The translations under genes were made by a program, and so were the position numbers. A DNA stretch of 64,000 nucleotides from a virus: positions 55,918 to 119,917 of the IMG/VR virus record IMGVR_UViG_3300033153_016035; one strand, 5' to 3'. A model generated the notes under the pieces. The model was not told the DNA's origin. It did no database searches and saw nothing but the letters and a program-made list of their open reading frames with translations. Below are positions 2,852 through 25,651 of this stretch, piece by piece (position 1 is the stretch's first letter; each line of letters opens with the position of its first letter).

Positions 2852-3967
2852 TTATCCTTTGCCTACTGAGGTTATTACCTGATCTACACTAATATTTTTT
2901 ACAATGTTACCTATAGGTTCCGCCGCCGCTTGTGCTATTACCCCATCTTTGCCCATTGCCGGGGCTGTATCATCCGAAACCGGGGCTCCTACTACTTGCG
3001 CGGCTATGCCGGTAACTCTTGATATTTGAACCACCCACCAGGGTGAATCTTTTCCATCTGGTTTACTCGCCAGTAGCGCCTGAGGGTATGCTTGTTTTAC
3101 CATCGTCATAATAACATCCATCTCATCTTGTTCTACACAAGGGTCGAAACAAAGATAAATGATATTATCGTCCAAGATGATATCCTGTAAGGCGTCGAGA
3201 GCATCCATTATCACTAATTTCTGCACAATACCATCAACAATCTCGTCGGTGGTCTCCAGAAAGGGATTGACTTCTTCCACTAAAGACACGGCGCGCATAG
3301 AAGATGGTAGGTGAAGAAGTATCTTAGTAGCAGTTTCTGTGATAACCCCCTCTTGAACGGCCACAACATCCGGTTTAACAACCTTACTTACCGGGGACGG
3401 GTCAACTATCTCCGGTTTTGGAAACCCTGACAGGACCAAACGTCTGCCGGTGAACCTGAAAATTGCACCACAATTTTTTTCCTGATAGTAACAAGAGATG
3501 GAGGCCGGGTAATCCAACTTAACCTTTACTTCCAGAGCCTCAAGGGGGCACGGTGCCTGAAAGTATTCTTTAACAACCCCGGCAAAAGCACCGGCAAATC
3601 GTGCTAGAAGGCCAGGGCCGGGTACAGTAAAAAGGCGTTGAAGATGGCTTGAGAATTCTTGATAGAAGGTTACCTGCAACTTTTTAAGGGCTCCTACGAA
3701 ATAACCCAATTGCTTTTCTACGTTCCGCACGGGCCCTTTTAACACTTTATTTAATCTCTGATACTGCCTAAAGGGTGCATCGTCAGCTACAGAAATTGTC
3801 TTACCCGCCCCCTTTGGGGTGGTGACCACCACATTTAATGCAATAGCATCCTCCTGCGCACTGGAAGACAGTCCCGGGACAGAAAGATCAACACGGTGAT
3901 TTTCCCGTTGGAGTAACTCGTAATTCTTATTTGCTTCCGCAAAGACAAAGAAGATATCCATATACAT
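2852..3967 (-). CDS. Hypothetical protein
   Basis: 371-aa ORF tightly packed between its neighbours (1-3 nt gaps). Confidence 0.8.
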   Translation of the reverse strand: MYMDIFFVFAEANKNYELLQRENHRVDLSVPGLSSSAQEDAIALNVVVTTPKGAGKTISVADDAPFRQYQRLNKVLKGPVRNVEKQLGYFVGALKKLQVTFYQEFSSHLQRLFTVPGPGLLARFAGAFAGVVKEYFQAPCPLEALEVKVKLDYPASISCYYQEKNCGAIFRFTGRRLVLSGFPKPEIVDPSPVSKVVKPDVVAVQEGVITETATKILLHLPSSMRAVSLVEEVNPFLETTDEIVDGIVQKLVIMDALDALQDIILDDNIIYLCFDPCVEQDEMDVIMTMVKQAYPQALLASKPDGKDSPWWVVQISRVTGIAAQVVGAPVSDDTAPAMGKDGVIAQAAAEPIGNIVKNISVDQVITSVGKG

Positions 3968-3968
3968 C

Positions 3969-6900
3969 CTATAGTTTCTGGTAAAGGGACATAACTTTAC
4001 TCAAACCCACATCGGTGTCCACTGCTTCACGCAAGTTTTTTAAAGAAGCATACAAGGTGTCGACGTCAACTAAAACATCTCCAGAGTAGTCTTTAGTTGT
4101 TACAACGACACGCCACATGGGAAGTACGCCTTCAGCTTTATAGTCTTTCTCGCCCATATAATCCGCTATAATGTAAACGTCTCCTGGACGCATTGGTATT
4201 TTTTTTGCTTTACTGCGCCCCAGCATCGGAACCCTTCCAACTACTCGGTCTTTAAGAACAAATCTACTTATAAACTTATTTTTCTCTTTGATACCCATTA
4301 CCCGCTTCTGGGCTTCCTTTTGGGGCAGCTCTAAAAATGTTGGGGAGTGTGTTATTGCGGTAAAGACCTCAGACAAGAATGCGTAAGCTTCGCCGGGGAA
4401 GTCCGAACCTTCTAATGTAACAATGTCTTCGGGTAAAGGGTCTTTTGACAATTTTCCGCCAAAACTTTCCTTTTTGGAAAGCGCGTGTATGACAACCCGA
4501 TCGCCCGAGGTAAGGAGGCTACCTTTAAACCGGGACTTCATACACATAATAGGAGCTTTGCCCAGCACAAAAGGCTCATCTACCCAACTTAGAACAAACT
4601 TATAGGGGTCTTTCATATTGTAAATAATTGAGTTTTTGGTTAGGTACCGCCATAGGTTGCTAAAGAAGCTAGAGATGTGTTCCTTCAATCCAGCTAATAT
4701 AGACTTTCTGGAACTTTCAGTTTTAGCCACCGCCGCCTGGGATTTATTTTCTATAAAAATTGTTTCTTTCCCGGATTCTCGGTAATTTTTAATCCACACC
4801 AAAGAGCCTCGCAAACCCGCTGGGATTTTACTAACAGCCCAACCTAATTTTTTAATGGAGTAGACAGTCATACCCACAGAGAGCACCAACGGCATAAAAA
4901 ATCCGATAGTGCCTTCCCCCAAGAAATCGAGGAAATCCGGGTATTTGAACATAATTATAATTAGTCCGTATTCCCTGGAGGAAAAAACGCCGTGGATGGG
5001 GTGTCCTGTCTTATCTGCTTGAAGCGCAAAATTTCTCCAGTAGTCTTCCGCAAATTGACGTTCTATGGGTTCTGCTTCTTCATATACCTGTGCCAATTTT
5101 TCTTGTAGCTCTTTAGGAACCTTTTCATTTAGAGCTATAGAACCCCGCAACTCCTCCAATAAAAGGATGATTGTATCAAGATCTAATTTAAAAAATCGAG
5201 AGTAGGTCCAATTCCAGAACTCCCAATCCTTGGAAGTTCTAACTATGTGTGTTTTCGTACCCATTTCTGTTTTAACTACACGGCGGACTTCTACTTCCCT
5301 GTAAGCCTCCCCCTTCCACAACCACAGCCCCGGTCTATGCTTTACATTACCAGTGGCATCAAAGAGGCGGTTGAAGTCGGCATAGGCGTGACGAATAAAC
5401 TTTGTCAATTTCCGTGCGTTTTTCGCAAGGTTCGCGCTATCTCTTCCCAAAATAAAATCTTCAGTTTCCTGGTAAACTAGAAACTTACGAAGGAAGATTT
5501 CGTCTTCATGCGTTAGCCCGCCAAAGACTGCAAACCGGTTACGCCACCACCTAAGAACCACATTCCCAATACTAAAGATGACGCCCACTTTTGCCATTAA
5601 AATACTCCACCCCCACAGTGATAAACCCAAAAAAGCCTCGTCCAGGGGTTCGTCTATCATGACAGTCTTGCCAGTGTCCGGACCCGAAAGTACTAAAAGC
5701 TCCTGCTTTCCGCCCTCTTCGTTATAATTGGCTTGAGTTCCTGCGGGGATTTCTACCACTTCCCCTTCTGGGCCAAAGCCCCGGATGGTTTTTGGGGTAG
5801 TTATTTTACCGGGCCCACCGGCAGTAATATCACCCTCTTTAAGACGTTCAAGCTCTCGTTGCTCCCGCGCTGTCAGATCAGTTTTAACTTTGTCTATCTG
5901 CTGTTTAATTCTTTCCTTAGCGGCTTCCATTCCTTCTTTACTGGTCGTAGTAAGCTGAGCCCTTTGACGCTTTAATGCCTCCAGACGGCTCTTCCTCAAT
6001 TCGACGTACCGTTGTTTAATAGCCATCGCCTTCTTAGCTGCGGCGTCATCTGCTTCCAGGAGAACCATTGTATCGGTATAATTTACTATGCTGTGTGCTT
6101 TTATCTTCTCAGATAAAAATAGTTCTTCGTGAAGCTGTACGGCGTTTCGGACATCATTATAAACTCGTATTATTATTCCCGGATGACAACTCTTCTTTAC
6201 TACCCGACCCGCCACACGCACTAAACCCTCAACCTGCTCTTCTGTCAAAAGCATGTCAAAGGCACTAATCACAATTTCCTCTATCCGCCTACCTGCGCGA
6301 ATATAAAGTCCGCCTTCCGGCTCCATCTGGGTACTTTTCGGTAGCACCTCCCCCACAAAAATATTTTCATCGAGTCCGCCTTGGATACGAAAGTATCGTA
6401 CAGTACCACTAGGATAAGGGGTACCGTTAGAAAACATCCGCAGGGCTGCTTCTTCAGGTCTAATGTGGCGAATGGCGCTGTAGCCCTCATCGTTAGTCTG
6501 AAATGTCCCCACGGACCGGTGCATTCTTCCCAACTCTCTATGGAGTCGACCAGCCGTCGGATCGGTTTTATGATACCGCTGGGCCTTCACCAGGGCCGCC
6601 TTACTCTGTTTCTTTTGAAGCATGGAGCGAAAACTACGTATACGCGAAACCACTCCCCCTCGATTCTTGCGTGATAAGATTTTATGCTGCACTTTCTTGT
6701 TGTGCTGCCGAGCTTTATTTATCCCCTTGGAGGTGAAGCGAAAACCCCCCACCACTATACGGGGATCACCCCCACGATGCCTTGGGTTTAGAACTGAACT
6801 TGGAGGCCGTTTACCGGACCACACCGTCTCTAAAAGTAAGGTGTTGCTTGCATATTCCCCCGCCTCATAGTGGTCGCAGTGAGGACGACTGTGTAGATAG

Positions 6901-13297: not shown

Positions 13298-13831
13298 CTA
13301 CCCTGTTAAAACAAAGTTGTCATTTGACCATAAAAGATTTTCCAAAACCTCAAAAGTGTCAGGATTTAACGCGTACAGCAGTTCCAATGTGGGAACGTAA
13401 CCTCTTTTTAATAATCTTTCTGAAAATATTTCGTAGGGTTCTTGAACCCACGGAAACTTACCGTGTTTCTGTGCTCCGCGAAATCTGCCAAGGATCTTCT
13501 GAAAATTTGGGGAGTTCTCCACTCCCATATGTGTTAAAAGATTTTCTATAGAAGAAAATGGGGGCAATGCTTGTGATCGGGAACCTTCCAGTCTAACTTT
13601 GGTCCCCTTGGGCACCTCAATTGGGTACCACTCGTCCTCAGTGGGAACATAGTAATATAAGGTTAATGGCGCTTTTAAATACGCTAAAGAGCCGTATGAT
13701 CCTATAATCTTTAGCGCCTGCCCACGTGATATAAGTTGAAGGGACTTATCCCCCCCAACCCTTTCTTCCAACACGAAGACTGTGTGGGCACCAGGTGGCA
13801 TATATTCATCTGAAATTGTATTCAACCACAT
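13298..13831 (-). CDS. Hypothetical protein
   Basis: 177-aa ORF, first gene of the leftward operon. Confidence 0.7.
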   Translation of the reverse strand: MWLNTISDEYMPPGAHTVFVLEERVGGDKSLQLISRGQALKIIGSYGSLAYLKAPLTLYYYVPTEDEWYPIEVPKGTKVRLEGSRSQALPPFSSIENLLTHMGVENSPNFQKILGRFRGAQKHGKFPWVQEPYEIFSERLLKRGYVPTLELLYALNPDTFEVLENLLWSNDNFVLTG

Positions 13832-13991
13832 CCTACTTACCCCTTTATAACACCTATATTGTTTAAGATGGGGGCTATATTTGTCAAGCTTATTATTACC
13901 AGCACGTTATGGTTATTTACATTTTTATAGCCGTTTGCACTTGATCTCATGGCACAAGGGGAGGTTTAATACACAATAAACTAATTTATCA

Positions 13992-14020
13992 TTTACATAA
14001 AAAGGTAATGATGTTATAAT
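13992..14020 (+). promoter_or_regulatory. sigma70-type promoter for the HTH gene
   Basis: TTTACA-17 nt-TATAAT with an extended -10 TGn. Confidence 0.7.
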
Positions 14021-14052
14021 GCCTTCAGGCCGTTGTGTGGAAGGAGAATGAA

Positions 14053-14289
14053 ATGTACGTTGATTTCAAGGAGGCCGCAAAAGTACTGGGAGTCCATTAC
14101 AATACCATCAAACGATGGACGGATAAATTAAAAATCAAGACACCCTCTGCGCCTAAAAAACTAAAACACGTAACCCGTGAGGTAAAGATGGTGCCCTTTC
14201 GGGAGCTTGTAAGTAAACTTACAGATGCAAAAGTATTACCATTTAGTCAAGTAGAGTCTTCTAATAATATTCCGAGTACAAAGAAGTAA
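14053..14289 (+). CDS. Small MerR/excisionase-type helix-turn-helix DNA-binding protein
   Basis: FKEAAKVLGVHYNTIKRW HTH signature; AAGGAG RBS upstream of ATG 14053. Confidence 0.8.
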   Translation: MYVDFKEAAKVLGVHYNTIKRWTDKLKIKTPSAPKKLKHVTREVKMVPFRELVSKLTDAKVLPFSQVESSNNIPSTKK

Positions 14290-14404
14290 ACAGTTTGTAA
14301 ATTATTTAAAAAACTACCACTACAGTTAAAAATTCTACCCCCACAATGTCAACGAACTTCCCGCTGTAACCCCCGAATTTATTACATTTTATTTAATTTT
14401 TCCC

Positions 14405-14433
14405 TTGCATTTCCCGCATTTTTGTGGTATAAT
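14405..14433 (+). promoter_or_regulatory. Near-consensus sigma70 promoter heading the plus-strand island
   Basis: TTGCAT-17 nt-TATAAT, extended -10 TG, AT-rich upstream region. Confidence 0.8.
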
Positions 14434-14439
14434 ATAGGT

Positions 14440-15391
14440 AGAAAAGGGGAAAGTTCCCCTTCATCTTAGAGATGGATTTCATCCATCTCCCTCCTAGATG
14501 TCCCGCACCTCCGAAAGAGCCGAGTGGGAAACTCAAGTGGGTTTCTTCGGTGGTTGTGGGTGAGACTTTTGTCGAAAGAGCTAGATGCCGCCCTTTAACG
14601 GGGCTACAGCTCATTAGAGGCATCAACCCGCACAAGTCGCGCATACATGCGCGGATCTGGAAGGACTCCCTGCCGTGGTTTAAATGGCACAGGTGAGGGC
14701 TTCCAGGTATCACAGGCTTAAAACAATCAGGAAACTACCAACCACAAGCCACTTTCTGGTTGACCGCTGACCCAAGAGGAACATTCTCCAGCGGTGCTAA
14801 TCCCAGTCCATCGTGACTGGGTGTGTCCCCGAAAGGGGATTCTGACCGGGGCATTTCACCATGCCCCTTGACCCCACAGCTTCCTCCTAACACGAGGAGC
14901 GGGGAAAGGTCTATTTGCGAGAACCCCACGGAGTCATCTGTGGGCCGAAAAGGATATACGACGTTGACCCTTAGGGGTCGGGGATTGGAGAGTCCCCTGT
15001 GAAGTCGTGAAGTGGTCGCGGGGCGCAACCGCCAGTTAACCCAACCCACACTTGGGGGCCGCTGGTTCTGAAAAGAGGTAAGGGACGTTTCGGGGGGAGA
15101 TGGTATGAAAAAAATTGATAAGACAGGTGGTAGCGATTACTGCTCACCCCATAAATTCTAAAGACCTAAGCGTCCACTGCGGACAAGCTGAAGAAAACAA
15201 AGGTAGCCACAGAGATGGCACCAGAAACGAGGTAAGCTTGAAAGTGTTGGCAGCCTGAGGAACTTACCCATCTAAAGTTTAACCCCTGCTTGCAGGAAGA
15301 AGACTTTTAATGGGACTTGGGGTCGAGTGGTAATTACTACCGCCGACAAATACACCCTGCATGGCAATAAACCATGTGGGGTTTTTATTTT
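14440..15391 (+). ncRNA. Candidate large structured non-coding RNA (about 950 nt), family unassigned
   Basis: Bounded by a promoter and a terminator, with no credible ORF. Long-range helices 14483-14511/15075-15103 and 15126-15145/15325-15344, plus many internal hairpins, some with GAAA tetraloops. Confidence 0.65.
15354..15391 (+). terminator. Intrinsic terminator-like hairpin
   Basis: ACCCTGCATGG-caataaa-CCATGTGGGGT followed by TTTTATTTT. Confidence 0.6.
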
Positions 15392-15395
15392 AACA

Positions 15396-15510
15396 AAGAC
15401 CGAGCCCGGTGGCCCGCACTTTTGTGCGGTCATGAATCCTTGCTTTCCCTTGTGGTGGCATAGCGAACCGGAAGTTAAATCTTCTGGGGTTCAACTCCCT
15501 GATTGGTCTT
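15396..15510 (+). ncRNA. Non-canonical tRNA-like element 1
   Basis: Closing stem AAGACCGA/TTGGTCTT, internal arms and T-loop GGTTCAACTCC (15488-15498); no canonical anticodon arm. Confidence 0.4.
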
Positions 15511-15991
15511 CAAAATTCAACAAGTAGTAACGGGATAAGGGTAAACATCAACCTGTTACGTGACCGTGCCCCTGACGGCCTTAGTACCCTGGACCGGGTG
15601 AAAGCCCCAGATACTTACCGGTTTCTCATGGCCTTGAGACGTTATCAGGGTCGGCATTCCGACGGTGGCATAAAGAATGGGAACTTCGCCACCCGCTGGT
15701 TGGGACTTAGATGTCCTTGGAAAAACTACAGGAAGTAATGTTCTTCGTAGCTGTCCTGGGCGTCCTAAAGGGTTTAACGGTTACTTGCACCCAAGTTATC
15801 CCTCGCTTCGGCCTAAAAACATAAAATGTGCTCGCGGTATTGTGGGAGGCACGCTTACCTCAGATTGTTTAACGACGGTCGACGGTGGGTAAGTTTAGGT
15901 TAGAGTCCTAAAATATCTGCACAACGCGGAATAACAAATCCGCAAGCTTGCCCCGAGGAAGCTAAAAAAATTAAATAACAACAATTTTATA

Positions 15992-16045
15992 TGTCGGCGT
16001 TGGTAGAGTGGCTACTACGTAGGTTCAACCCCTAAAACGTCAACA
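15992..16045 (+). ncRNA. Minimal tRNA-like element 2 (D-like and T arms, no anticodon arm)
   Basis: TGTCGGCGTT/AACGTCAACA stem, GGTAG-AGTGG-CTACT arm, TAGG-TTCAACC-CCTA arm. Confidence 0.45.
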
Positions 16046-16069
16046 AAACTTTGTGGGGCTAAGGCCCCG

Positions 16070-16122
16070 GTCCAGTATAATCTGTGTTAGAAAAGAGTTG
16101 AAACTGGACATCGACTAACACA
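16070..16122 (+). other. Predicted H-type RNA pseudoknot
   Basis: GTCCAGT(16070-76) pairs ACTGGAC(16103-09); loop TGTGTTAG(16083-90) pairs CTAACACA(16115-22). Confidence 0.5.
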
Positions 16123-16311
16123 AACTGCTTACCCCATCGGGAAAAGCGAGGTGGGGAGTTCTAACGAACTAATCGCCGTCAACTCCGGCGAGGAAGATGG
16201 GGAAGCGTCAAAATCTTTAAACGATCCTGGTAGGGTAAAACCTACCGGGGTCATCATCTATTCTATTTCGTAACTATCACAGGGGGCCTGAGTGCCCCCG
16301 AGGAGTTTAAA

Positions 16312-16584
16312 ATGAAGACTATAGTATTACAAAGAGTCCCCGATGGGTATCGGGGAGATTTGGACTGTCTAGCGGTGGTAACGCCGCATAAAGAAATTGG
16401 CTGCACCCATAGTGGGCACGGCCACGACTATAAAGTCCACATCGTCATCGACGAAACCGTCGCAGGGACGTTGTTCCGTGAACACGGGAATAATGGGGGT
16501 GGAAAACCTGCCTGTGATACCTTCTATCCAGCGGAAGGTTGGAAGGTTGAGTATGACGATTACGACGACGATGACGACGACTAA
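16312..16584 (+). CDS. Hypothetical protein with an acidic C-terminus
   Basis: GAGGAG RBS, 90 aa, flanked by repeat elements. Confidence 0.75.
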   Translation: MKTIVLQRVPDGYRGDLDCLAVVTPHKEIGCTHSGHGHDYKVHIVIDETVAGTLFREHGNNGGGKPACDTFYPAEGWKVEYDDYDDDDDD

Positions 16585-16677
16585 AATTAACCCCAGGTGG
16601 GCTAGAAGCCCACTTGGGATATCATCTATTCCATTTTTTAACTATTACAGGGGCCTGAGTGCCCCGAGGAGTTTAAA

Positions 16678-16971
16678 ATGAAAAAAGATAATAAAAAAAA
16701 CCAACTCCTGCGCTCCTTCGCGCAGGCGGCCAATTTTCCCTTTGCCGAAGCACGAAAAAGAGCGTATTGGTGGGGAATCCCCCACTACTTCTTGGGGGAA
16801 GAGCCAAACGGTTCCCGGTGGTGGGTAGAACTCGATTTTACAAAAAACGAGTACCGCATCGTCGTCTGGGAAGGGCGGGAGTGGACCAAAGCCGTAAGAA
16901 CCGAAGGCTCGAAGTTGACCAAACGCCTGGTCCGCGTAACCAGGTGTCTAAGAGGCTGGAAACAAAAATAA
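16678..16971 (+). CDS. Hypothetical protein
   Basis: GAGGAG RBS; leader nearly identical to that of the 16312 gene. Confidence 0.75.
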   Translation: MKKDNKKNQLLRSFAQAANFPFAEARKRAYWWGIPHYFLGEEPNGSRWWVELDFTKNEYRIVVWEGREWTKAVRTEGSKLTKRLVRVTRCLRGWKQK

Positions 16972-17014
16972 ACCCAACCCCAGGTAGGCTAGAAACCTGC
17001 TTGGGGTATTATAA

Positions 17015-17251
17015 AACGTGGGTGTTGGAAAGCATCTTTACAAGGTGCCCTCCACCGCCCACCCAGCCGGGCCGGATTAACCCCTATCCCGGTTACTAAA
17101 CGGACTTTGCCTACAGTCCAACAACTAAAGTAGGCGCCTTGCCGAGGACGGTATAACTCCCTTTCGGGCCCACCTGATTAACGCCACCGTGCGAGGGGAA
17201 CGGGTTCAACTCCCGTGGCAACACCAATATGTGGTTTCCAATGACCACGTT
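17015..17251 (+). ncRNA. Structured RNA containing a pseudoknot and tRNA-like element 3 ending in ACCA (17226)
   Basis: Closing helix AACGTGG..TTGGAAA/TTTCCAA..CCACGTT; pseudoknot GGACT/AGTCC with GCCTAC/GTAGGC (17102-17135); T arm ACGGG-TTCAACT-CCCGT followed by GGCAACACCA. Confidence 0.55.
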
Positions 17252-17379
17252 CATGACAGGACACTGTTGACGTACAACTGCCATTTGGCGGCGGGCGTCG
17301 AGTGTCCGTTGCCCGCCAGCAGTGCCATTGCATGTTTAACTCTGGGAGTCGCGACCTTAGAGTTAAAACCCAATTGGAG

Positions 17380-17435
17380 AAAAAGCCCGCAAACACACCC
17401 CAACCCTGGAGTGCGTTTGCGGGCTTTTTTTATTT
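17380..17435 (+). terminator. Intrinsic terminator (potentially bidirectional)
   Basis: AAAAAGCCCGCAAAC...GTTTGCGGGCTTTTTTT. Confidence 0.7.
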
Positions 17436-17484
17436 CAAATTTTTACGTTTGTGGGGTAATTGCCTACAGGCGTAATTATATTTC

Positions 17485-17532
17485 AGCCCGCAATATCCTT
17501 TCTACGAGAGGGGATGTTGCGGGCTTTTTTTT
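17485..17532 (+). terminator. Intrinsic terminator-like hairpin
   Basis: AGCCCGCAATATCC...GGATGTTGCGGGCTTTTTTTT. Confidence 0.65.
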
Positions 17533-17548
17533 AATTTAAGGAGAAATC

Positions 17549-17842
17549 ATGTCTCGAAACAAAAAAAATAATATGACCCAACCCCAACCCCAACCCCAAC
17601 CCCAATTCACTCCCGCCACCCAAATGAACAGTCTCCCGGCACCAGCCGAGGAGATGGTAAGTAGGACCATCGGGGAGTTGATCCAGGAATCAGTCGAAAG
17701 GAACCTGGACTTTTCAGGGTGTATACGGCAGGCCGACAAAGAGCTTGACGTCTCGTACACCCCACCCAAAGATGAGGAGGGGTCGGTGAAAAAAAGGGAG
17801 TTTCAATTGAGGTTCCGCGACAACAAGAGAATCTCAGACTAG
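17549..17842 (+). CDS. Hypothetical protein with a QPQPQPQPQ repeat
   Basis: AAGGAG RBS; tandem CAACCC hexamers. Confidence 0.65.
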   Translation: MSRNKKNNMTQPQPQPQPQFTPATQMNSLPAPAEEMVSRTIGELIQESVERNLDFSGCIRQADKELDVSYTPPKDEEGSVKKREFQLRFRDNKRISD

Positions 17843-17920
17843 CCTATTCCGGGGGTGGCTCCCCCGGCTCCTTACCATGTTTTTTTAAACCCTGTAACTT
17901 TTAAGAAAAGGAGGTCTACC

Positions 17921-18943
17921 ATGATTATCATGCAAGACCAAGTTCAGAATTTTCAGGATATAAACACGTTACATGAGCACGTAGAAGCTCAGGATGTCAG
18001 CGAAAGGATCGGAACGGTAAAGCTCCAAGATATGGAGCTATGGCCGAACTCCCTGCGAGTCAGGGATGAACACTACGCGTTGACCCGGACAGGCGTCAAC
18101 GACGCTCTATCCCTGGCACATTTCCCTCAGGGAGCCTTCATTAAGGTCGAAGAGGAGAAACAAGGCGATATCGACTTGGGGTTGTGTACATACACCAACT
18201 CCTTCTATAACCATGCCTCTTGCAAAAATAAGAGGCGCAAGATAATAACCCGCGCCACCACCGAAAACGAAAAGGAGGCGACTGGCCTTGAAAGGGCTGT
18301 CATCGGCATCCCGAGTGAGCAATACTATTTGTTTTCTCACGCCGAGGCGCTTGATAAAATCAAGGCCCCGGTTTCCACTCTCCAGGTAAAAAGGGCGCGG
18401 GTGACACCGCACTTAATGGAAATATGTGTGGTGGACGACCGCTTCAAAGCCCAAGCGGGCGCGGTTGGAGACATAGTAGAGATTGGGGTTAAAATCCTCA
18501 ACTCACAAACCCGAGCAAGGAAGCTCCAATTTGGAGCCTTCACATGGCGGCTTTGGTGTACAAATGGCTGCTCCGCAGCCAGCGAAGCGTTTTCGTTTGG
18601 ATTTGTCCACCGGCAGGGAATAACGGCCATCAATGGCCAGATAGAGCCAGGCATTAGAGACCTAATTGAGAAGACGGAAGTCTTCACAAAGGGTCTTCCG
18701 CGTCTGGCAGAAATGCCTGCCGACGACAAGTTCATCCGGCGGATCGAGCCTCGGCTCGTCCAAGGGATGAAAACAGCACCGGCGCAACTGTACACCGAGG
18801 GTCTCCGGGAAAACCGGCAAAACCGGTTGGATGTTTGGAACTACGTCACCGAGTACGCACACAAACATACCGGGGGCGACGTCAACAAACAGCAAACCCT
18901 GGAGAACCTTGGGTTCTCCATCCTGGAGATGTCCATAAATTAA
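17921..18943 (+). CDS. DUF932-like phage/plasmid protein
   Basis: GVKILNS...AFTWRLWCTNG signature; AAGGAGG RBS before ATG 17921. Confidence 0.7.
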   Translation: MIIMQDQVQNFQDINTLHEHVEAQDVSERIGTVKLQDMELWPNSLRVRDEHYALTRTGVNDALSLAHFPQGAFIKVEEEKQGDIDLGLCTYTNSFYNHASCKNKRRKIITRATTENEKEATGLERAVIGIPSEQYYLFSHAEALDKIKAPVSTLQVKRARVTPHLMEICVVDDRFKAQAGAVGDIVEIGVKILNSQTRARKLQFGAFTWRLWCTNGCSAASEAFSFGFVHRQGITAINGQIEPGIRDLIEKTEVFTKGLPRLAEMPADDKFIRRIEPRLVQGMKTAPAQLYTEGLRENRQNRLDVWNYVTEYAHKHTGGDVNKQQTLENLGFSILEMSIN

Positions 18944-19019
18944 CAACCCAGCCCCGACAGGATAAGCTCCTGTCGGGGTTTTTATTTCCCCAAACACTAA
19001 CTCTTTGAAAGGAGACTAT

Positions 19020-19385
19020 ATGGGAAATTTCTTTTACTGGTCCAATTCGGACCTGAAGAACTTAGAAGCGGCCGCACACCGCGATGGGTACCGGCTGCCC
19101 ACAAATTTTTACATGAGGCGGTCGGAAGTAACGGCGGACCTTTACCAACAGGAAGAGGTTCGTGATGAGGCGGTAAAGGCCGCCGCGACGGAGTGGCAGA
19201 AGCTCCGTAAGGGGATTGCCTGGGTCAAGCTCGATGGAGACGACCAGGAGGTCGGTCCCCGATCGGCTGACTTTTACAAGGAAGCCCTCCCCCAGCAGTT
19301 GTTTGACTTGCTGGGAAGTTTTGACCGGAAGGCCGCTTTGGTGGCGGCTATCGAGTTTATACGCACGTATAGACCCGCAGAATAA
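19020..19385 (+). CDS. Hypothetical protein
   Basis: AAGGAG RBS before ATG 19020. Confidence 0.75.
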   Translation: MGNFFYWSNSDLKNLEAAAHRDGYRLPTNFYMRRSEVTADLYQQEEVRDEAVKAAATEWQKLRKGIAWVKLDGDDQEVGPRSADFYKEALPQQLFDLLGSFDRKAALVAAIEFIRTYRPAE

Positions 19386-19460
19386 ACTGTGTCTACAGGG
19401 GGCTAAATGCCTTCTGTAGACTTTATGCTTTTTATTACATTAACTTTTTAAGGAAATATT

Positions 19461-19652
19461 ATGAAAAAGTACGACCTTGTATGCCCCCATTGCCACGAAC
19501 CGGAGGTGGTTCACCTCCCGGCACATGCGCCCAATGAGCCCCACTGTACGGAATGTGGGGAGGATGTGGATCTTGACGAGGTCCACACATTTATCAATGG
19601 GTGGACCGATTATCTGGCTGACAGAAAAGCGTTTTTGGAGGCAAAAAAATGA
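19461..19652 (+). CDS. Small Zn-ribbon protein
   Basis: CPHC...CTEC; AAGGA RBS. Confidence 0.7.
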   Translation: MKKYDLVCPHCHEPEVVHLPAHAPNEPHCTECGEDVDLDEVHTFINGWTDYLADRKAFLEAKK

Positions 19653-20089
19653 ATCTGATTGAATTCTTCCGAGGAGACTACACCCTAAAAGTGGAGGTTC
19701 TCCTGACGGACCCTGATAATAAAAGGGTCTGCCTGACTATCGTCCAAACTGCCCCTGACACAAGGAAGGCGTTGAGGACCAATCAGTTCTACCTCAAACT
19801 GTCGGAGGCGCGGATACTGTTTCAGGACTTTTTGTCCTGTGAATTTTGGGTCGCCAACCGGCGATATCCAAAAAGACAGTTCCGGCGGATCCGAAAGTCC
19901 AGCCGGTACCGGGATGTCATTATCCAGCCTAAGGATAATGACCTTTCCTTATCTATTATAGATGGGGAGAAGGAAAATGTCCTTCGGTTTCAGTTGACCT
20001 CGTTTGAAGCCGCCGAGATGGCGGACACGGTTTTAGACTATCTGGACAAAAAGCGCCTCGCCTGGGCGATAAAGCAGGCGATAAAATAG
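19649..20089 (+). CDS. Hypothetical protein
   Basis: ATGA overlap with the upstream gene; GGAGG RBS. Confidence 0.7.
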   Translation: MNLIEFFRGDYTLKVEVLLTDPDNKRVCLTIVQTAPDTRKALRTNQFYLKLSEARILFQDFLSCEFWVANRRYPKRQFRRIRKSSRYRDVIIQPKDNDLSLSIIDGEKENVLRFQLTSFEAAEMADTVLDYLDKKRLAWAIKQAIK

Positions 20090-20182
20090 GGACTACCGGG
20101 GGACACAGTTCCCCGGTAGCCGTCATGGCCCGTAACATTTCTTTTCGGCGGCCTTTCGGTCGCTATTTAAAAAGGAGAATTT

Positions 20183-20872
20183 ATGTATATTCATTTTTCC
20201 GAACCGGGCAAAATGCCCTGCCATGCCTGGTCGCTTCCGACGGCAATGTGCCAATCGGGACAAAAGTACCGGTTACAGGGCGACCTGACCGGTAAACCAT
20301 TTGCCTGTCGTGTGTGTTATGCACACCTTGGGCCTACGTCCTGGAATAAAAACCAGGGATATTTAACAAAAAACTGGGAGGCGTATGCCGCAAATCCAGA
20401 TGGCTGGGTGATAGAGATTGCCGACGCTATCTGGAATCGACTAAACGCCTTGTATTTCCGGTGGAACCACAGTGGCGATATCCAAAGTGCAATCCACTTA
20501 GGACACCTAGTCGGCGTGGCCGAGCTTTGCCCCAAAACTTTTTTCTGGCTACCAACGTCCGAATTTGCCTTCGTGTCTCGATATCTCCGGGACGGTGGCG
20601 ACATCCCCAAAAATTTATGTGTACGGGTATCGGCCCCACTCATAGACGGGAAACCCCGCATCTTGCGGAGGCCGCACCCCCAAGTGGCATACAGTAGAGT
20701 AGTCTACCATGAGGTAGATGAAACCTTGTGCCCTGCTCACAGACAGGAGGGGGTTTGCGGCAAATGCCGCAGATGTTGGGATATTAACGAGAGACTAGTA
20801 TCCTATCCACTTAAGGTGGGGTACACCTACTGGCCGTTACTAACAGCCAATAGGCTAGGTCTAATAAAATAA
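20183..20872 (+). CDS. Gp88-like Cys-rich phage protein (mycobacteriophage gene 88 family)
   Basis: KMP..WSLP..C, CxxCYA, YFRWNHSGD, FWLPT, NLCVRVS and CPA..Q.G.CGxCRxCW motifs. Confidence 0.75.
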   Translation: MYIHFSEPGKMPCHAWSLPTAMCQSGQKYRLQGDLTGKPFACRVCYAHLGPTSWNKNQGYLTKNWEAYAANPDGWVIEIADAIWNRLNALYFRWNHSGDIQSAIHLGHLVGVAELCPKTFFWLPTSEFAFVSRYLRDGGDIPKNLCVRVSAPLIDGKPRILRRPHPQVAYSRVVYHEVDETLCPAHRQEGVCGKCRRCWDINERLVSYPLKVGYTYWPLLTANRLGLIK

Positions 20873-20953
20873 AACCGGGCCGGGGAGGATAGAACCTCCT
20901 CGGTTCTTTATCTTTTACTTTTAATTTTACTTAACAAAGGAAAGGAGATTTGT

Positions 20954-21505
20954 ATGAAAGACAAATCTCATCTTACCACCACCTATGACGCCTACAACAC
21001 CGCCCGGATCCTCGATGACTACGTCAATGGATCCGGCGGCTTCACCGAAGTTTTTGCTGAGAGTTTCAGCTTGGAAGAAGCGCGGGTTGTGTGTAAATTT
21101 TTCTACCACTCCCTCATCTACTATGGAGGAAAAGAGGTAGGCATTGACGGGCGGAACGAATACTACGTAGGGGTCTGCAAAAAAATCAGACCAAAACATC
21201 ACGCCATGCAAGTGGCAGACTGCGCAACGTACAACGGGAACAAGGAAGAAATACCGTACCACCCTGAAGAGTACGCCGTGTCCAGATTTCTGGTACGGTG
21301 GTTGAAGACTGCTTCGATGTCTGAACAGAAGAAATTCTTTCACTTCTTCAGGGAGGACACGCACAACATGCTCCAGTCCTATTTTGTAGAACTGGCCATC
21401 AAAATGTGTCTTTACTGGCACGCTAGGCTCCCAGAACTAAAACCGCTAATAAAAAGTATTGTAGATGCAGGTCACTACATAAATACCCGCGATTTACACT
21501 ACTAA
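20954..21505 (+). CDS. Hypothetical protein
   Basis: AAGGAG RBS; bounded by hairpin elements. Confidence 0.75.
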   Translation: MKDKSHLTTTYDAYNTARILDDYVNGSGGFTEVFAESFSLEEARVVCKFFYHSLIYYGGKEVGIDGRNEYYVGVCKKIRPKHHAMQVADCATYNGNKEEIPYHPEEYAVSRFLVRWLKTASMSEQKKFFHFFREDTHNMLQSYFVELAIKMCLYWHARLPELKPLIKSIVDAGHYINTRDLHY

Positions 21506-21577
21506 AAAGAACCCGGCGCTGGCCATAAACCGGCGTCGGGTATCATAACCTATTTCGTTTCTTTTTAGGAGAAATCC

Positions 21578-21826
21578 ATGAGATGTACGAAAGAACAACT
21601 GGACCAATGGGTCCAGATACTAACCAAACTTGTCCCACCACCCAAATGGTGTCGGTGGGAATACCGAAATGAGTATGGTCATGGGATTTTCCCCGTAATC
21701 ATAAAAAATGGTGCCGTTTACGCCAACAAGGTGCTCGGCGGGATGGTCCACAATACCAAACCAGAGTTACTGTCGCACATCAAGTTTACGGTTAGTGTTA
21801 TTCAAGCCCTGAAGGGGGGAGAGTAA
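21578..21826 (+). CDS. Hypothetical protein
   Basis: AGGAG RBS. Confidence 0.7.
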   Translation: MRCTKEQLDQWVQILTKLVPPPKWCRWEYRNEYGHGIFPVIIKNGAVYANKVLGGMVHNTKPELLSHIKFTVSVIQALKGGE

Positions 21827-22101
21827 TGTATTTCAAATTTAAACTAAACGTAGTCCGGGAGGCCCTATCCTCTGAGACTATTACCATCAATCTCCGGGGG
21901 CCTAAAGAGGCACCGGTATTTTCAAATGGACTTCTGTCCGAAATTCTTGAGGCCAGTGAGGTTGAGACCTCGGTTTCTGTGTCCTCCAAGGACATCAGAG
22001 ATCTACTAAAAACGCATGGGCGGTACAAAAAGTATATGTACTGCTTGGTCCAGAAGGATTACCTTCTAGTGGGATTTTCCCCACTCAAAAAAAGAAAATA
22101 A
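21826..22101 (+). CDS. Hypothetical protein
   Basis: TAATG coupling with the upstream gene. Confidence 0.7.
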   Translation: MYFKFKLNVVREALSSETITINLRGPKEAPVFSNGLLSEILEASEVETSVSVSSKDIRDLLKTHGRYKKYMYCLVQKDYLLVGFSPLKKRK

Positions 22102-22173
22102 ACCTGAGCCTGGGTGGAGGTAGAACTTCCCCGGGCTATTATCTTTAATTTCATAACTTTTTAGGAGACTACT

Positions 22174-22683
22174 ATGGATTTTTTAAAGCTTATCAGAGAA
22201 GAAGAGTACCAGACAGTAGTGCGCCAACTGGCGCATGAAGACGGGATCGAAGTGGTCCTATCTATTCCCGGAGTATGGGAGCTGGTGGCGGAGTTTTATA
22301 ACAACGCCGCCATTGAGTTGTGGCAGAAGGAACTCCCCTTTACGTGGGAGGAGGATGGTCACGAGGTGGTATTGGAACTCCTGGAGACGGGCACGAAAGT
22401 CGTGCTACGCCAGTCCGACCGCCCGTGGTCCAGCCCGGGGTTTTCCCGCCTGGAGTACGAAGTCTACCAAACGGGGTTTACCCCCATTTTTGAGAATGAC
22501 GACTTCGCAGTTCCGACGGGGGCGGGTTTAACCCTCAGGTCGACTTTAAGCCTACTGCGCCACCTCACAGACCCACATAAGCTGGGTCGGGAATTTGACC
22601 TCAACCAGCTCGACTGGTTAGAGACTTATGGGGGGGAGATCGGAGGATTTGCTGCCGATTGGCGGCAAAGGCTCGACATATAA
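22174..22683 (+). CDS. Hypothetical protein
   Basis: AGGAG RBS; bounded by hairpin elements. Confidence 0.75.
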   Translation: MDFLKLIREEEYQTVVRQLAHEDGIEVVLSIPGVWELVAEFYNNAAIELWQKELPFTWEEDGHEVVLELLETGTKVVLRQSDRPWSSPGFSRLEYEVYQTGFTPIFENDDFAVPTGAGLTLRSTLSLLRHLTDPHKLGREFDLNQLDWLETYGGEIGGFAADWRQRLDI

Positions 22684-22744
22684 AACTAAACCCGGGCGGG
22701 ATGACTCCTGTCCGGGTTACTATTTCTATTTTAAGGAGAAAAAT

Positions 22745-22951
22745 ATGAGCTACAAACACCCCGAAGGGTGGATCAAGCGTGGGGAGAAACACCACTTTTT
22801 CGTGGACGGCGTCTCCCTGTGTCGCCATTTCTACCAATTCACGTACGATAACCCGTCCGAACACGACGGGCTGTACAACTTAATGGACTGCGCCGAGTGC
22901 CAGTCCAAACACAAGCATTTAATCTCTGAAAGGAGATTTAAAAATGGATAA
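22745..22951 (+). CDS. Small Cys/His protein
   Basis: AAGGAG RBS before ATG 22745; HFF...SLC...CAEC. Confidence 0.7.
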   Translation: MSYKHPEGWIKRGEKHHFFVDGVSLCRHFYQFTYDNPSEHDGLYNLMDCAECQSKHKHLISERRFKNG

Positions 22952-23120
22952 AAACTGTGAGGACTGTGGTACCCCCATTATACGAGGGGGGATGGTTGTC
23001 GTCGATGGCGCCGTGAAGGCTGGCGACGTTTTACTTTGCAGCGAATGCAAAAACAAACAAAAAATTCGTACGCATAACGCCCTCACCCATATGTACGGGC
23101 AGATGGCGATGGACGACTAA
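22944..23120 (+). CDS. Small Zn-finger protein (58 aa, not in the ORF track)
   Basis: AAGGAG RBS; MDKNCEDCG...LLCSECK. Confidence 0.7.
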   Translation: MDKNCEDCGTPIIRGGMVVVDGAVKAGDVLLCSECKNKQKIRTHNALTHMYGQMAMDD

Positions 23121-23195
23121 ACTGTGCCCGGGTAAGGATAAAACCTTGCCTGGGTTTTATTTTTTTATTCCCTAGTTTACTTTAAGGAGACTTCT

Positions 23196-23504
23196 ATGGA
23201 TAAAAACTACACCGACCCCAAAAAGTGTTGGCCCCCAAAAATGGACAAAGACCTCGATCTGATTTTTCGGATCGGGGACACGATGTCAGACTTTTTGGGG
23301 AGGCACGGGGTGGCTGGCCAACTTGATGGCCCATACCAAGCGTGGGCACACCCCAATTACCACAGGGAGACCCCCGAGACAATTAGGGGGGACAGCTCCA
23401 TCGGAGATGGGGGGTTAAATGACAAAGTCCTTAGGTCAGCCACTGCATTTGTGGCGTACAGCTTGTCTATGACGAGTGCCCCGACTGTCGAAGTATCTGT
23501 TTGA
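23196..23504 (+). CDS. Hypothetical protein
   Basis: AAGGAG RBS. Confidence 0.65.
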   Translation: MDKNYTDPKKCWPPKMDKDLDLIFRIGDTMSDFLGRHGVAGQLDGPYQAWAHPNYHRETPETIRGDSSIGDGGLNDKVLRSATAFVAYSLSMTSAPTVEVSV

Positions 23505-23710
23505 CATGTTACGCGTGTGGTGGGGTATGGAAGCCCAAGACCCCGCCGGAAAGTCGGGAATGTCCAGAAACCTGCATCCACTGCGGGACTTCCTGCTGCC
23601 CTAATTGCGGTGGGGAGATATATCGCGTTGAGGAGAGGGATGGAGTAGAGGAGCAGTACAGAAAAGCGTGTTCATACTGCTCCTGGCGACACTGCGGGGG
23701 GTGCATTTAA
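23501..23710 (+). CDS. Small Cys-rich protein
   Basis: Multiple CxxC motifs; TTGA overlap. Confidence 0.55.
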   Translation: MTCYACGGVWKPKTPPESRECPETCIHCGTSCCPNCGGEIYRVEERDGVEEQYRKACSYCSWRHCGGCI

Positions 23711-23786
23711 AATAAGGCCAGAGGGGGTTGAAAGCCCCTCAGGTCATCATCTACTTCATAACTTTTTCAAGAAGAAAGGGTATGCT

Positions 23787-24005
23787 ATGTATAGATCAAC
23801 AAGCCAAGTTATCTGCAAAAACCGAAAAACAGGCGAAGAAAAAACATATAGCGGATTAGAACCATGTGATGCTCTGATCGTCATTTACGCGCAGAGCATC
23901 GGAGACTTTAATTCGGCGCACTACGGTAAATACTGTGCATACATACGCCGGGACGGGGTTTACAAATATGAACTTGGGGACTGGTATGTTGCCACTCCAA
24001 CCTAA
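23787..24005 (+). CDS. Hypothetical protein
   Basis: 72 aa, bounded by hairpin elements. Confidence 0.7.
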   Translation: MYRSTSQVICKNRKTGEEKTYSGLEPCDALIVIYAQSIGDFNSAHYGKYCAYIRRDGVYKYELGDWYVATPT

Positions 24006-24082
24006 ATAAAAACCAGATCTGAGGGGGCTTACCCCTCCTCAGGTCATCATCTACTTTATTTCTTTATTAAGGAGAATTCTAT

Positions 24083-24775
24083 ATGAGAAAAATAAGCGAG
24101 ACACCGAGGGACTGTTATGAGTCCTTCTTTGCGACGTCGTCGCCCATTGTGACCATCCGTCAGGTTTTAGGGATACCTAACCCTGATGAGTTTGGTATTG
24201 TAGGTGATGACGGGGCTTACAAAATATGGTTTGAGGGAACCCCTATCCAAAATTATAGGGGGGAAATTGTATCGGGAAGCTGGCCGCAGTTCAACCCCGT
24301 GGAAAAAGCACGTCAGGAGAGCCTACCCCACCTTGGAAAAGTGTGGGTTATCTGGAGTCATGATCTCGAACTCCTCGGGGAGTGGAAACAGGCCCTAAAA
24401 AAGGGTGATCCAAATTACCGTGAAGCGGTAACGGAGGATATCGTCATCATGTGGCGGTGGTTTGAAATAGACAACCCGTTTCTTTTCATCCATGACCTGC
24501 ACCTGCCAAGGTCGATACCCCTACTAGACTGTGCCCGAAATGACGAGTTTCTCAGGTGGGCATACACCCTCAAATTTGAGGATATGACCCCCCACGAAGA
24601 AAAACACGCCATGAAGCACTGGATGCCCTCCGGTAAATGCAACCAGCACCTTGATGGCAAATTTCGCGTCAGAAAGAACCGACGCGGACTTTGGAAATGG
24701 TCGTGCGGTTTCTGCGGGGAACGGGGCACGGAGAAGTTTAAAGCACCGAGTGAGTGCCCCCTTTGTAAAAAGTAA
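24083..24775 (+). CDS. Hypothetical protein with a C-terminal Zn ribbon
   Basis: AAGGAG RBS; WSCGFCG...CPLC. Confidence 0.75.
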   Translation: MRKISETPRDCYESFFATSSPIVTIRQVLGIPNPDEFGIVGDDGAYKIWFEGTPIQNYRGEIVSGSWPQFNPVEKARQESLPHLGKVWVIWSHDLELLGEWKQALKKGDPNYREAVTEDIVIMWRWFEIDNPFLFIHDLHLPRSIPLLDCARNDEFLRWAYTLKFEDMTPHEEKHAMKHWMPSGKCNQHLDGKFRVRKNRRGLWKWSCGFCGERGTEKFKAPSECPLCKK

Positions 24776-24855
24776 ACCCAGGGCCAGGAAGGATTGGAAC
24801 ACTTTCTGGCCATTATCTATTTATTTACTTCATAACTTTTACAAAGGAATGGTAA

Positions 24856-24930
24856 ATGACATATAGACCAACAAGCAGAGTCGTCTGTAAAAACCGAACT
24901 TTTTTAAAGGGGTGGCCATGTGTAAAATGA
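24856..24930 (+). pseudogene. Truncated paralog of the 23787 gene
   Basis: MTYRPTSRVVCKNR versus MYRSTSQVICKNR; shared upstream ACTTCATAACTTTT; stops after 24 codons. Confidence 0.55.
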
Positions 24931-25071
24931 CTTTTGGGTACGTGGAATCATTCACCCATTTTAATGTCTGCGCAGATTGGACCCCCGACTGCGCGGAGAT
25001 CAAAGACAAAGAGAAGTGTCAAGGGTATGAGCCCGCCACTGGGCCATGCCCTTACTTATAAGGAGCGACCT

Positions 25072-25341
25072 ATGTTCAGAATTGTGGCAACACAATGCTT
25101 CTGCGACCTTTCCGTTTTCACCATAAACGGAGAGACCGCAGCCTATGAAGACTTCGGCGACAAGTATGACGCCGATGAAGAAAACGCACCCGACTATGGG
25201 TGTGGTAATATGAAATTTTTTCCCAAACCCGCAACCCAAGCGGTACTGGATAAGTACCGCACCACCACCGACGAGTACAACGAGATTTGCGCTGCGCTAG
25301 AAGCGGCGCTATCGTTTGGTGAATGCGAGTGGTGCTCCTGA
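25072..25341 (+). CDS. Hypothetical protein
   Basis: AAGGAG RBS before ATG 25072; YGCG and CxWC motifs. Confidence 0.75.
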   Translation: MFRIVATQCFCDLSVFTINGETAAYEDFGDKYDADEENAPDYGCGNMKFFPKPATQAVLDKYRTTTDEYNEICAALEAALSFGECEWCS

Positions 25342-25350
25342 CAAACCTAT

Positions 25351-25399
25351 GCCCCCCGACTGTGACCAACTAGGTCATAGTCGGGGGCTTTTTTTATTT
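25351..25399 (+). terminator. Terminator ending the plus-strand island at a convergent gene junction
   Basis: GCCCCCCGACTGTGACC-aacta-GGTCATAGTCGGGGGC followed by a T run. Confidence 0.8.
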
Positions 25400-25651
25400 G
25401 CCTTCGTTCAAACGATCCTGCCTGGCCCCGCGATAAAACACTGCAAACTCCTTTTTTCGTAGTGGGACTACCGTCAAGTCGGTGGCATTTACCGACGCCA
25501 ACCTCTCGGTCAGCTCTACCATCGCCTTATCCAATTCTTCATAATCATCTTTCCACTCCAGAAGGATGTGGGCCATCCCCCAGGCTGCTTTGCCGTCCTC
25601 GGTCCGCGTCGTAGTACCCGAAACTTTCATATGGTTTTCCTCTCTGCTCAA
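25394..25651 (-). CDS. Hypothetical protein
   Basis: ORF ending at the terminator; start probably ATG 25630. Confidence 0.55.
   Translation of the reverse strand: MSREENHMKVSGTTTRTEDGKAAWGMAHILLEWKDDYEELDKAMVELTERLASVNATDLTVVPLRKKEFAVFYRGARQDRLNEGK

Follow-up and report, generated by a model that had tools for sequence, protein, structure and literature searches.

The locus considered here, positions 14405-15391 (+ strand) of a 64,000-nucleotide (nt) stretch of viral DNA, raises the question whether a unit without a protein gene can itself be a gene for a large structured RNA and, if so, of which kind. The stretch, referred to below as the window, comprises positions 55,918 to 119,917 of the IMG/VR record IMGVR_UViG_3300033153_016035, which is called G000 in the following. 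An initial annotation made from the sequence alone had described a promoter-to-terminator unit encoding a highly structured RNA, either a divergent member of a class such as GOLLD and ROOL or a new large noncoding RNA. The first of these options is not supported by the Rfam searches, which gave no match, whereas the promoter-terminator unit, the long-range fold and a counterpart in a related phage (G001) favor the second. We consider it moderately probable that the unit is a stand-alone gene for a discrete, early, compact noncoding RNA of about 0.95 kb with two domains, which would belong to an uncatalogued and fast-evolving family.

Unit layout and absence of a coding signal

The unit comprises about 950 gene-free nt that are bracketed by their own promoter and an intrinsic terminator, and its G+C content is 51.8% compared with 47.0% in the surroundings. 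The promoter had been called near-consensus. This is correct for the -10 element, which is a perfect extended -10, but not for the -35 element TTGCAT, which agrees with TTGACA at three of six positions only. Because of this -35 element, the promoter was not listed by a consensus scan. When both strands of the 64-kb window were searched with the pattern TTGNNN-N14-16-TGNTATAAT, the unit promoter was the sole match. We infer a transcription start near 14440. At the other end of the unit, the annotated terminator proved to be the highest-ranked terminator-like site in 13500-17000, with a stem probability of 0.99 (Table 1).

Open reading frames (ORFs) of more than 74 amino acids (aa) are absent from the + strand in 14290-16311, and at a threshold of 75 aa no ORF-free gap elsewhere in the 119,917-nt record is as large as the one at this locus. 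Eight ORFs with lengths of 47-106 aa lie in the unit or overlap it, and their mean codon log-odds range from -0.20 to +0.07. This is the range of spurious ORFs, as given by a baseline of 138 spurious ORFs overlapping long genes (mean -0.09, standard deviation 0.10, 95th percentile 0.07), while scores above 0.1 were obtained for 12 of the 15 ORFs in the plus-strand block. No homolog of the 106-aa minus-strand ORF was found among 5.8 billion clusters, the ORFs of 106, 104 and 74 aa have neither a Pfam family nor exact copies in the protein collection, and none of the unit ORFs has a counterpart in this stretch of G001. The annotated lack of a protein product is supported by these results. Nevertheless, the stretch could encode a protein or peptide in the form of the 106-aa or 104-aa minus-strand ORF, the 74-aa plus-strand ORF or an 18-aa mini-ORF. 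These ORFs exist, and the mini-ORF has a plausible Shine-Dalgarno sequence, but the codon scores, the missing homologs and the missing conservation in G001 argue against it, and the minus-strand ORFs oppose the promoter and the terminator. We regard a coding function as the least probable of the explanations considered here.

The mini-ORF, MKKIDKTGGSDYCSPHKF, is located at 15105-15161 between the two domains of the predicted RNA, with its ribosome-binding site GGAG inside the 3' strand of the rod described below. No counterpart was seen in G001, and the mini-ORF is probably due to chance.

Predicted fold of the transcript

All fold figures for the G000 RNA are minimum-free-energy (MFE) and centroid predictions and ensemble pairing probabilities. 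In these predictions, domain 1 (14464-15123, 660 nt) is closed by an interrupted rod that runs from end to end and consists of 11 helices with 73 base pairs (bp). Pairing probabilities were examined for ten of the 11 helices; nine lie between 0.88 and 1.00, including the helix 14464-14468/15119-15123 with 0.89, and one, 14539-14543/15038-15042, reaches 0.66. The three-part long-range closing helix of the initial annotation was recovered in full, since all three helices are present in the sequence and in the MFE fold as parts of this longer rod (Table 1). The rod encloses a multi-branched core, whose two nested closing helices (14627-31/15018-22 and 14710-19/15002-10) have probabilities of 0.92-0.95. 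Most of the hairpins named in the annotation are found in the fold, namely CCCAGTC/GACTGGG, (G)TCCCC-GAAA-GGGGA(T), GGGGCAT/ATGCCCC and CTGGAAG/CTTCCAG, but CTCC-GAAA-GAG is not among them, as its bases belong to the rod. The second domain was predicted at the annotated position and is closed by a long stem of very high probability.

A local hairpin at the 5' end of domain 1 had been proposed to compete with the closing helix and to give rise to alternative folds. This hairpin forms in all five truncated transcripts folded (60, 100, 200, 400 and 640 nt) but has a probability of 0 in the full-length ensemble. According to these folding models, the hairpin is best read as a co-transcriptional intermediate. 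The long reach of the pairing also separates the unit from coding sequence: 103 pairs span more than 200 nt and the median span is 47, whereas four coding segments of the neighbouring block have 23-45 pairs of this length and median spans of 22-26.

Folding stability and strand preference

The whole 954-nt transcript has a predicted folding energy of -406.6 kcal/mol versus -314.9 +/- 10.2 kcal/mol for dinucleotide shuffles (z -9.0), and none of 20 shuffles was as good. With 40 shuffles each, the z-scores of the + and - strands are -9.6 and -4.6 for domain 1 and -5.4 and -4.2 for domain 2. Overall, the + strand of the unit exceeds the - strand in stability by 43 kcal/mol. Ten 954-nt segments from the minus-strand (late) genes gave z-scores between -1.9 and +1.15.

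The strand comparison also bears on the possibility that the stretch acts as DNA, for instance in starting replication, in packaging or as a hotspot of recombination, and that its RNA fold is incidental. The unit sits at the switch between divergent gene blocks, where the cumulative GC skew turns, and the reverse strand is likewise beyond shuffles, both for domain 1 (z -4.6) and for the G001 RNA (z -7.7). Both observations would suit a DNA element, but the clear + strand preference in G000 and the promoter and terminator that bracket the unit in both phages speak against one. In addition, the unit is single-copy in its own genome according to self-BLAST, with iterons and direct repeats inside the unit not having been searched for; the sole repeat of the genome lies downstream of the unit. 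A function at the DNA level is therefore considered very unlikely.

Counterpart in a related phage

Among the relatives reached, only G001 covers the RNA locus. This 116-kb phage record has a capsid protein 64% identical to that of G000, and its gene order at the locus is the same: a homolog of P0001, a small + strand ORF, an AT-rich stretch, a promoter, about 860 ORF-poor nt and a terminator. Despite this common layout, the neighbouring proteins of the two phages are only 24-31% identical. The homolog of the 327-aa neighbour shows 31% identity with HMMER and 29% with tblastn, and the small ORF (L097:2863-3132), which has no Pfam match, is 24% identical to the 84-aa helix-turn-helix ORF upstream of the G000 unit (E 1e-4). 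A GP88-family gene, 50% identical between the phages, follows 4-5 kb downstream in both.

The G001 promoter consists of TTGCAA, a spacer and TGTGGTATAATATAGATAG, compared with TGTGGTATAATATAGGTAG in G000, and the core TGTGGTATAATATAGRTAG is identical. The RNA folds at -275.0 versus -222.9 +/- 4.9 kcal/mol for shuffles (z -10.7), and its ends are joined by a helix of 3274-3289 with 4041-4056 (probability 0.96-1.00). The competing 5' hairpin of this RNA, GTGAAA/TTTCAC, occupies a portion of the closing strand and forms at four of five truncation lengths (80-770 nt), while a different hairpin is folded at 40 nt. The terminator is a 22-bp hairpin followed by a T-run, and the G+C content of the RNA is 45.8% versus 42.7% in its surroundings. 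Position, promoter, size, end-to-end closure and the kinetic 5' hairpin are thus conserved between G000 and G001, but the sequence is not.

The best single similarity between the two RNAs is a common hairpin, ACAATCA.../...TCTGGTTG, followed 78 nt from the hairpin start by CAG(C/A)GGTGCTAA. As a chain of this kind with k=7 was found in 26 of 400 shuffles, this similarity is suggestive only.

A core that had been assembled by eye, GAAAGG-5-TTGCGA followed by an 8-bp hairpin, GGGCCGAA and AAGGATA, was rejected. Its pattern occurs in two of 51 records, which are the two it was derived from, its exact-match chain was reached by 147-153 of 1000 shuffles, and the model R2 gave a background-level E of 1.

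Evidence against a dedicated RNA gene and the leader alternative

Several results weigh against the interpretation as a dedicated RNA gene that is conserved in G001. The most important of these is the regional folding. Six 954-nt segments of the plus-strand block at 16.3-25 kb have z-scores of -4.8 to -10.8, with a single 362-aa gene containing one of these segments completely; two coding segments of the G001 plus-strand block (L097 7098-9039) reach -6.0 and -7.5. The reverse strands of three of the six G000 segments are less extreme (z -2.9 to -7.0). In a scan of 185 windows of 300 nt up to 36.8 kb, only one unit window is among the 25 most extreme, and nearly all of the most extreme windows are located in 16.0-25.5 kb. 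The description of the unit as highly structured is therefore justified with respect to shuffles, but it does not mark the unit within its neighbourhood, where coding segments of the plus-strand block are about as extreme. Since extreme folding is common to the whole early region, it cannot alone show that the unit is a dedicated RNA gene. What sets the unit apart is the lack of a coding signal, the possession of its own promoter and terminator, and the long-range architecture.

Further points of this kind concern the codon test, which is imperfect because the conserved GP88 gene scores 0.000, and the strand preference in G001, which is weak (-275.0 versus -271.5 kcal/mol, z -10.7 versus -7.7). 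Moreover, none of four distant relatives with capsid proteins of about 50% identity and G+C contents of 58-71% has an ORF-free gap of at least 450 nt in the 15-16 kb around the syntenic gene.

The sequence comparison of the two RNAs adds to these points. Smith-Waterman local alignment scores are no better than those of shuffles. The best nhmmer hit in 1.8 Mb of loci has an E of 0.97 and is located elsewhere than the counterpart, and a single-sequence covariance model of 14800-14999 finds the G001 RNA with an E of 0.055 in 4 kb, which is at background level. A collinear chain of 5-mer matches between 14723-14988 and L097 3620-3892 was matched by 3-5 of 1000 shuffles, but this is the only one of six parameter settings that beats the shuffles, and the other five do not. 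The two RNAs lack significant sequence similarity and do not yield a significant alignment for an analysis of covariation, and they may be analogous in position rather than homologous.

Region-wide RNA structure in the messenger RNAs (mRNAs) of a double-stranded DNA phage, as seen on the + strand of G000 at 16300-25400 and likewise in the G001 block, is an unusual observation in its own right.

The hyper-structured plus-strand block could also mean that the unit belongs to a long early transcript, either as its structured 5' leader or as a precursor for processing. In this case, the terminator would be leaky or regulated, and the rod would be a processing stalk for a double-strand-specific RNase or a stabiliser of downstream RNAs or mRNAs. 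Long flanking helices are known to serve as RNase III sites. Apart from the structure of the entire block, this explanation would account for the fact that the only sigma-70-type sites found on the + strand in 13500-17000 are one at 13992 and the unit promoter, for another 920 ORF-free nt past the terminator, and for the mini-ORF with a Shine-Dalgarno sequence inside the closing helix, which fits a regulatory leader. However, the terminator is strong, with 11 pairs, a T-run and a probability of 0.99, and its equivalent at this place in G001 is longer still. The downstream cassettes have their own repeated upstream motif and a ribosome-binding hairpin, suggesting separate phage-type starts, and the mini-ORF has no counterpart that could be seen in G001. 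A leader or precursor is the main rival explanation but appears rather unlikely, and a stand-alone RNA gene is the reading that we prefer.

Proposed course of transcription and significance

If the unit is a stand-alone RNA gene, the predicted folds suggest the following course. Host RNA polymerase would transcribe the unit from about 14440 on DNA entry, and the nascent 5' end would be held in the 9-bp hairpin 14469-14489. The emerging 3' strand at 15024-15123 would then displace this hairpin and zip the interrupted rod of 73 bp, which would join both ends of the 465-nt branched core before the 219-nt domain 2 and the terminator follow. With its buried ends and many GNRA-capped hairpins, the product could be a compact RNA particle that resists nucleases and exerts its effect as RNA in early infection. 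A role as a scaffold or decoy in host take-over or counter-defence is a guess.

A bolder version would be that this T4-like clade opens infection with a giant, fast-evolving RNA particle, expressed from the sole consensus promoter of host type in the region, at the head of an 11-kb early transcriptome that is hyper-structured even within protein-coding genes, and that the RNA and the regional folding together form a device for counter-defence or take-over at the RNA level, such as a decoy or sponge for host single-strand-specific RNases or RNA-sensing immunity, or a self-assembling cage like those of GOLLD and ROOL. We regard this version as speculative and improbable.

Large ornate phage RNAs such as GOLLD and ROOL are among the least understood RNAs, and few families have been catalogued. 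The locus would add a family with an early host-type promoter and a 73-bp rod that forms after a kinetic 5' hairpin, a design that is kept in G001 despite sequence divergence. In addition, the mRNAs of the region headed by the unit show an abnormal degree of structure. If the interpretation is true, it would offer a testable case for a role of large RNAs at the start of infection. It would also mean that a gene of this kind can keep its structure and position while its sequence changes, in which case library-based searches would miss many such genes.

Table 1. Coordinates (positions in the window) and properties of the features of the RNA unit and its upstream neighbour.
Feature	Position	Strand	Basis or remark
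Upstream ORF, 84 aa	14035-14289	+	Weak helix-turn-helix match; own sigma-70-like promoter 13992-14020
Promoter	14405-14433	+	-35 TTGCAT 14405-14410, spacer 17 nt, extended -10 TGgTATAAT 14425-14433
Promoter motif of the unit, TGTGGTATAATATAG		+	
Promoter core of the unit, TGTGGTATAATATAGRTAG			Same in G001 at the syntenic site
5' terminal hairpin, 7 bp	14444-14461	+	MFE fold; present in all truncated folds
Rod of domain 1, 5' strand	14464-14558	+	Pairs with 15024-15123
Rod of domain 1, 3' strand	15024-15123	+	Pairs with 14464-14558
Transient 9-bp hairpin, GAGATGGAT/ATCCATCTC	14469-14489	+	3' strand later taken by the closing rod
Rod helix, CCATCTCCCTCC/GGGGGGAGATGG	14483-14494/15092-15103	+	Sequence and MFE fold
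Rod helix, AGATGTCCC/GGGACGTTT	14496-14504/15082-15090	+	Sequence and MFE fold
Rod helix, ACCTC/GAGGT	14507-14511/15075-15079	+	Sequence and MFE fold
Multi-branched core of domain 1, about 465 nt	14559-15023	+	Two nested closing helices, about 12 hairpins, several GAAA-capped
Domain 2, 219 nt, two arms	15126-15344	+	25-bp closing stem, probability 0.97-1.00
Intrinsic terminator	15354-15391	+	11-pair stem (15354-15382) with 6 G-C pairs, 7-nt loop, then TTTTTATTTT

The phage and its relatives

G000 encodes a T4-type portal, a gp23-type capsid protein, a prohead protease, a tail sheath, baseplate J, DNA polymerase A and a DnaB-like helicase, and is a deep-branching, uncultivated T4-like myovirus. 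The IMG/VR record is labelled as a provirus with an estimated completeness of 55%. No integrase was seen among the G000 ORFs scanned, and the record may be a fragment of a lytic phage despite its label. Among GenBank phages, the identity to the G000 capsid protein does not exceed about 28%. In metagenomes, 80 proteins match it at E<=1e-20, 17 of them with 60-79% identity, and several (P0059, P0062, P0069 and P0070) are encoded on contigs of 39-138 kb. Because of these many metagenome matches and the low identity to GenBank phages, the clade appears to be common but uncultivated.

The proteins adjoining the RNA are singletons at 90% identity. Single-protein searches of viral contigs with the 177-aa, 327-aa and 362-aa proteins and P0054, together with the alignment A2, found no relatives, and P0054 has none in GenBank phages or genome contigs either. 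The metagenome search yielded one 2.6-kb contig, which stops short of the locus, and for the 177-aa protein there are two relatives, both on contigs of at most 1.5 kb. A search of genome contigs with the capsid alignment found relatives of at most 40% identity, two of them near-full-length (28-30%) and four short and partial (32-40%). In IMG/VR, the same alignment found 80 loci, three of which have a capsid identity of at least 60%: a 4-kb fragment, G002, which contains the structural module only, and G001. Loci collected on the basis of GP88 are 25-38% identical. Twelve ORF-free gaps were folded, ten from these loci and two from the capsid-derived locus L026, with z-scores of +0.7 to -5.0.

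Direct searches with the RNA were likewise negative. Neither the G000 RNA nor the G001 RNA has a blastn match in GenBank phages, T5-like phages included, and nhmmer with the RNA gave nothing significant in 1.16 Mb and then 1.8 Mb of loci. In 19 related IMG/VR records, there were only chance matches of 14-28 nt, and the matches in G005 and G008 fall within GC-rich sequence that is dense in ORFs. The pattern TGTGGTATAATATAGRTAG occurs in 34 IMG/VR stretches, of which only G001 is related; in the other 33, it is mostly located shortly upstream of start codons and in several cases before short terminated sequences.

Neighbouring regions

The 84-aa ORF upstream of the unit has a coding-like codon score of 0.298. 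Its match to the Pfam family HTH_17 has an E of 9.9e-5 and 23 bits, which is under the cut-off of 27, and its match to phrog_66 has an E of 5.6e-4. Its promoter has the form TTTACA-17-TATAAT with TG.

Downstream of the terminator, 15392-16311 comprises 920 nt without an ORF of at least 75 aa and folds with a z-score of -3.2. T-arm-like motifs, GGTTCAAC(T/C)CC, are present at about 15488 and 16022, and no transfer RNA (tRNA) was called there by ARAGORN or by Rfam at E<=10. A cassette junction is repeated at 16226-16313 and 16590-16679, with 82% identity between the copies over 87 nt. The junction is composed of a 12-bp hairpin followed by ATCATCTATTC(Y)ATTT..TAACTAT(Y)ACAGGGG(G)CCTGAGTGCCCC(C)GAGGAGTTTAAAATG. 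Judging from its sequence, a phage-specific promoter followed by a hairpin of the 5' untranslated region and a ribosome-binding site is possible. Further downstream, a 116-aa ORF at 17189-17539 has a codon score of -0.002 and may not be a gene.

The GP88-family protein, which is rich in cysteine (PF17338; G000 20183-20872 and L097 8264-8938), is the best-conserved early gene product between the two phages with 50% identity. Relatives with 25-34% identity are found in phages of Pelagibacter, Roseobacter, Caulobacter and Acinetobacter.

G001 contains three further stretches of 2.2-2.7 kb without ORFs of at least 100-110 aa, namely L097 4741-7097, L158 14321-16979 and L007 19227-21440. The first adjoins the large RNA of G001 on its 3' side and holds short genes that are preceded by a repeated motif, ..TATAAGTCCT... 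A TATAAGWCCT motif of G001 was rejected as a common element, as it is not enriched in the G000 window, with 11 matches compared with 7.2 +/- 2.9 expected.

Comparison with known RNA classes

A search of the whole 64 kb with Rfam 15 at the gathering score gave no matches, including none to GOLLD, ROOL, OLE, HEARO, group I and II introns, RNase P, tmRNA and 6S. The proposed membership of a catalogued class thus did not hold up. At E<=10, only BMV3_UPD-PK1, Acido-1, Clostridiales-2 and HgcF were reported in 13800-16600; these are unrelated to one another and far below their cut-offs. ARAGORN found neither a tRNA nor a tmRNA in the window and no tRNA in the whole record. On the G001 locus at E<=5, Rfam reported only plant and animal microRNA models, which fall on the AT-rich promoter region, and on five relative loci it found one tRNA, in L101 only.

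In bacterial rRNA operons, processing stalks flank the rRNAs. The rod of the G000 RNA resembles them in that a large folded RNA is enclosed by a long helix whose two strands lie hundreds of nt apart. Unlike these operons, the unit contains nothing rRNA-like, and a cleavage of the rod would be conjecture.

ROOL is an ornate RNA of phages and prophages that is thought to act as a complex of RNA alone, in which kissing loops and A-minor contacts occur (PMC12286853). The G000 RNA is comparable to this class (RF03087) as a phage ornate RNA with several GAAA-capped hairpins. It differs from ROOL in being larger and having two domains, and neither G000 nor G001 has a match to the Rfam model.

GOLLD includes many members of more than 800 nt with a multi-helix fold, no known protein partner and no assigned function, which occur in phages and prophages and often near tRNA islands (PMC12286853). 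The differences from this class (RF01998) are that its covariance model (conserved 3' half) does not match the G000 unit even at E<=10 or the G001 counterpart, that no canonical tRNA adjoins the G000 unit, with T-arm-like motifs downstream only, and that neither a long rod from end to end nor an early promoter of host type, as in G000, is known as a feature of GOLLD. Large size, an elaborate multi-helix fold and carriage by a phage are shared with GOLLD. The most likely reading is that the G000 RNA resembles GOLLD and ROOL in kind and represents a separate family.

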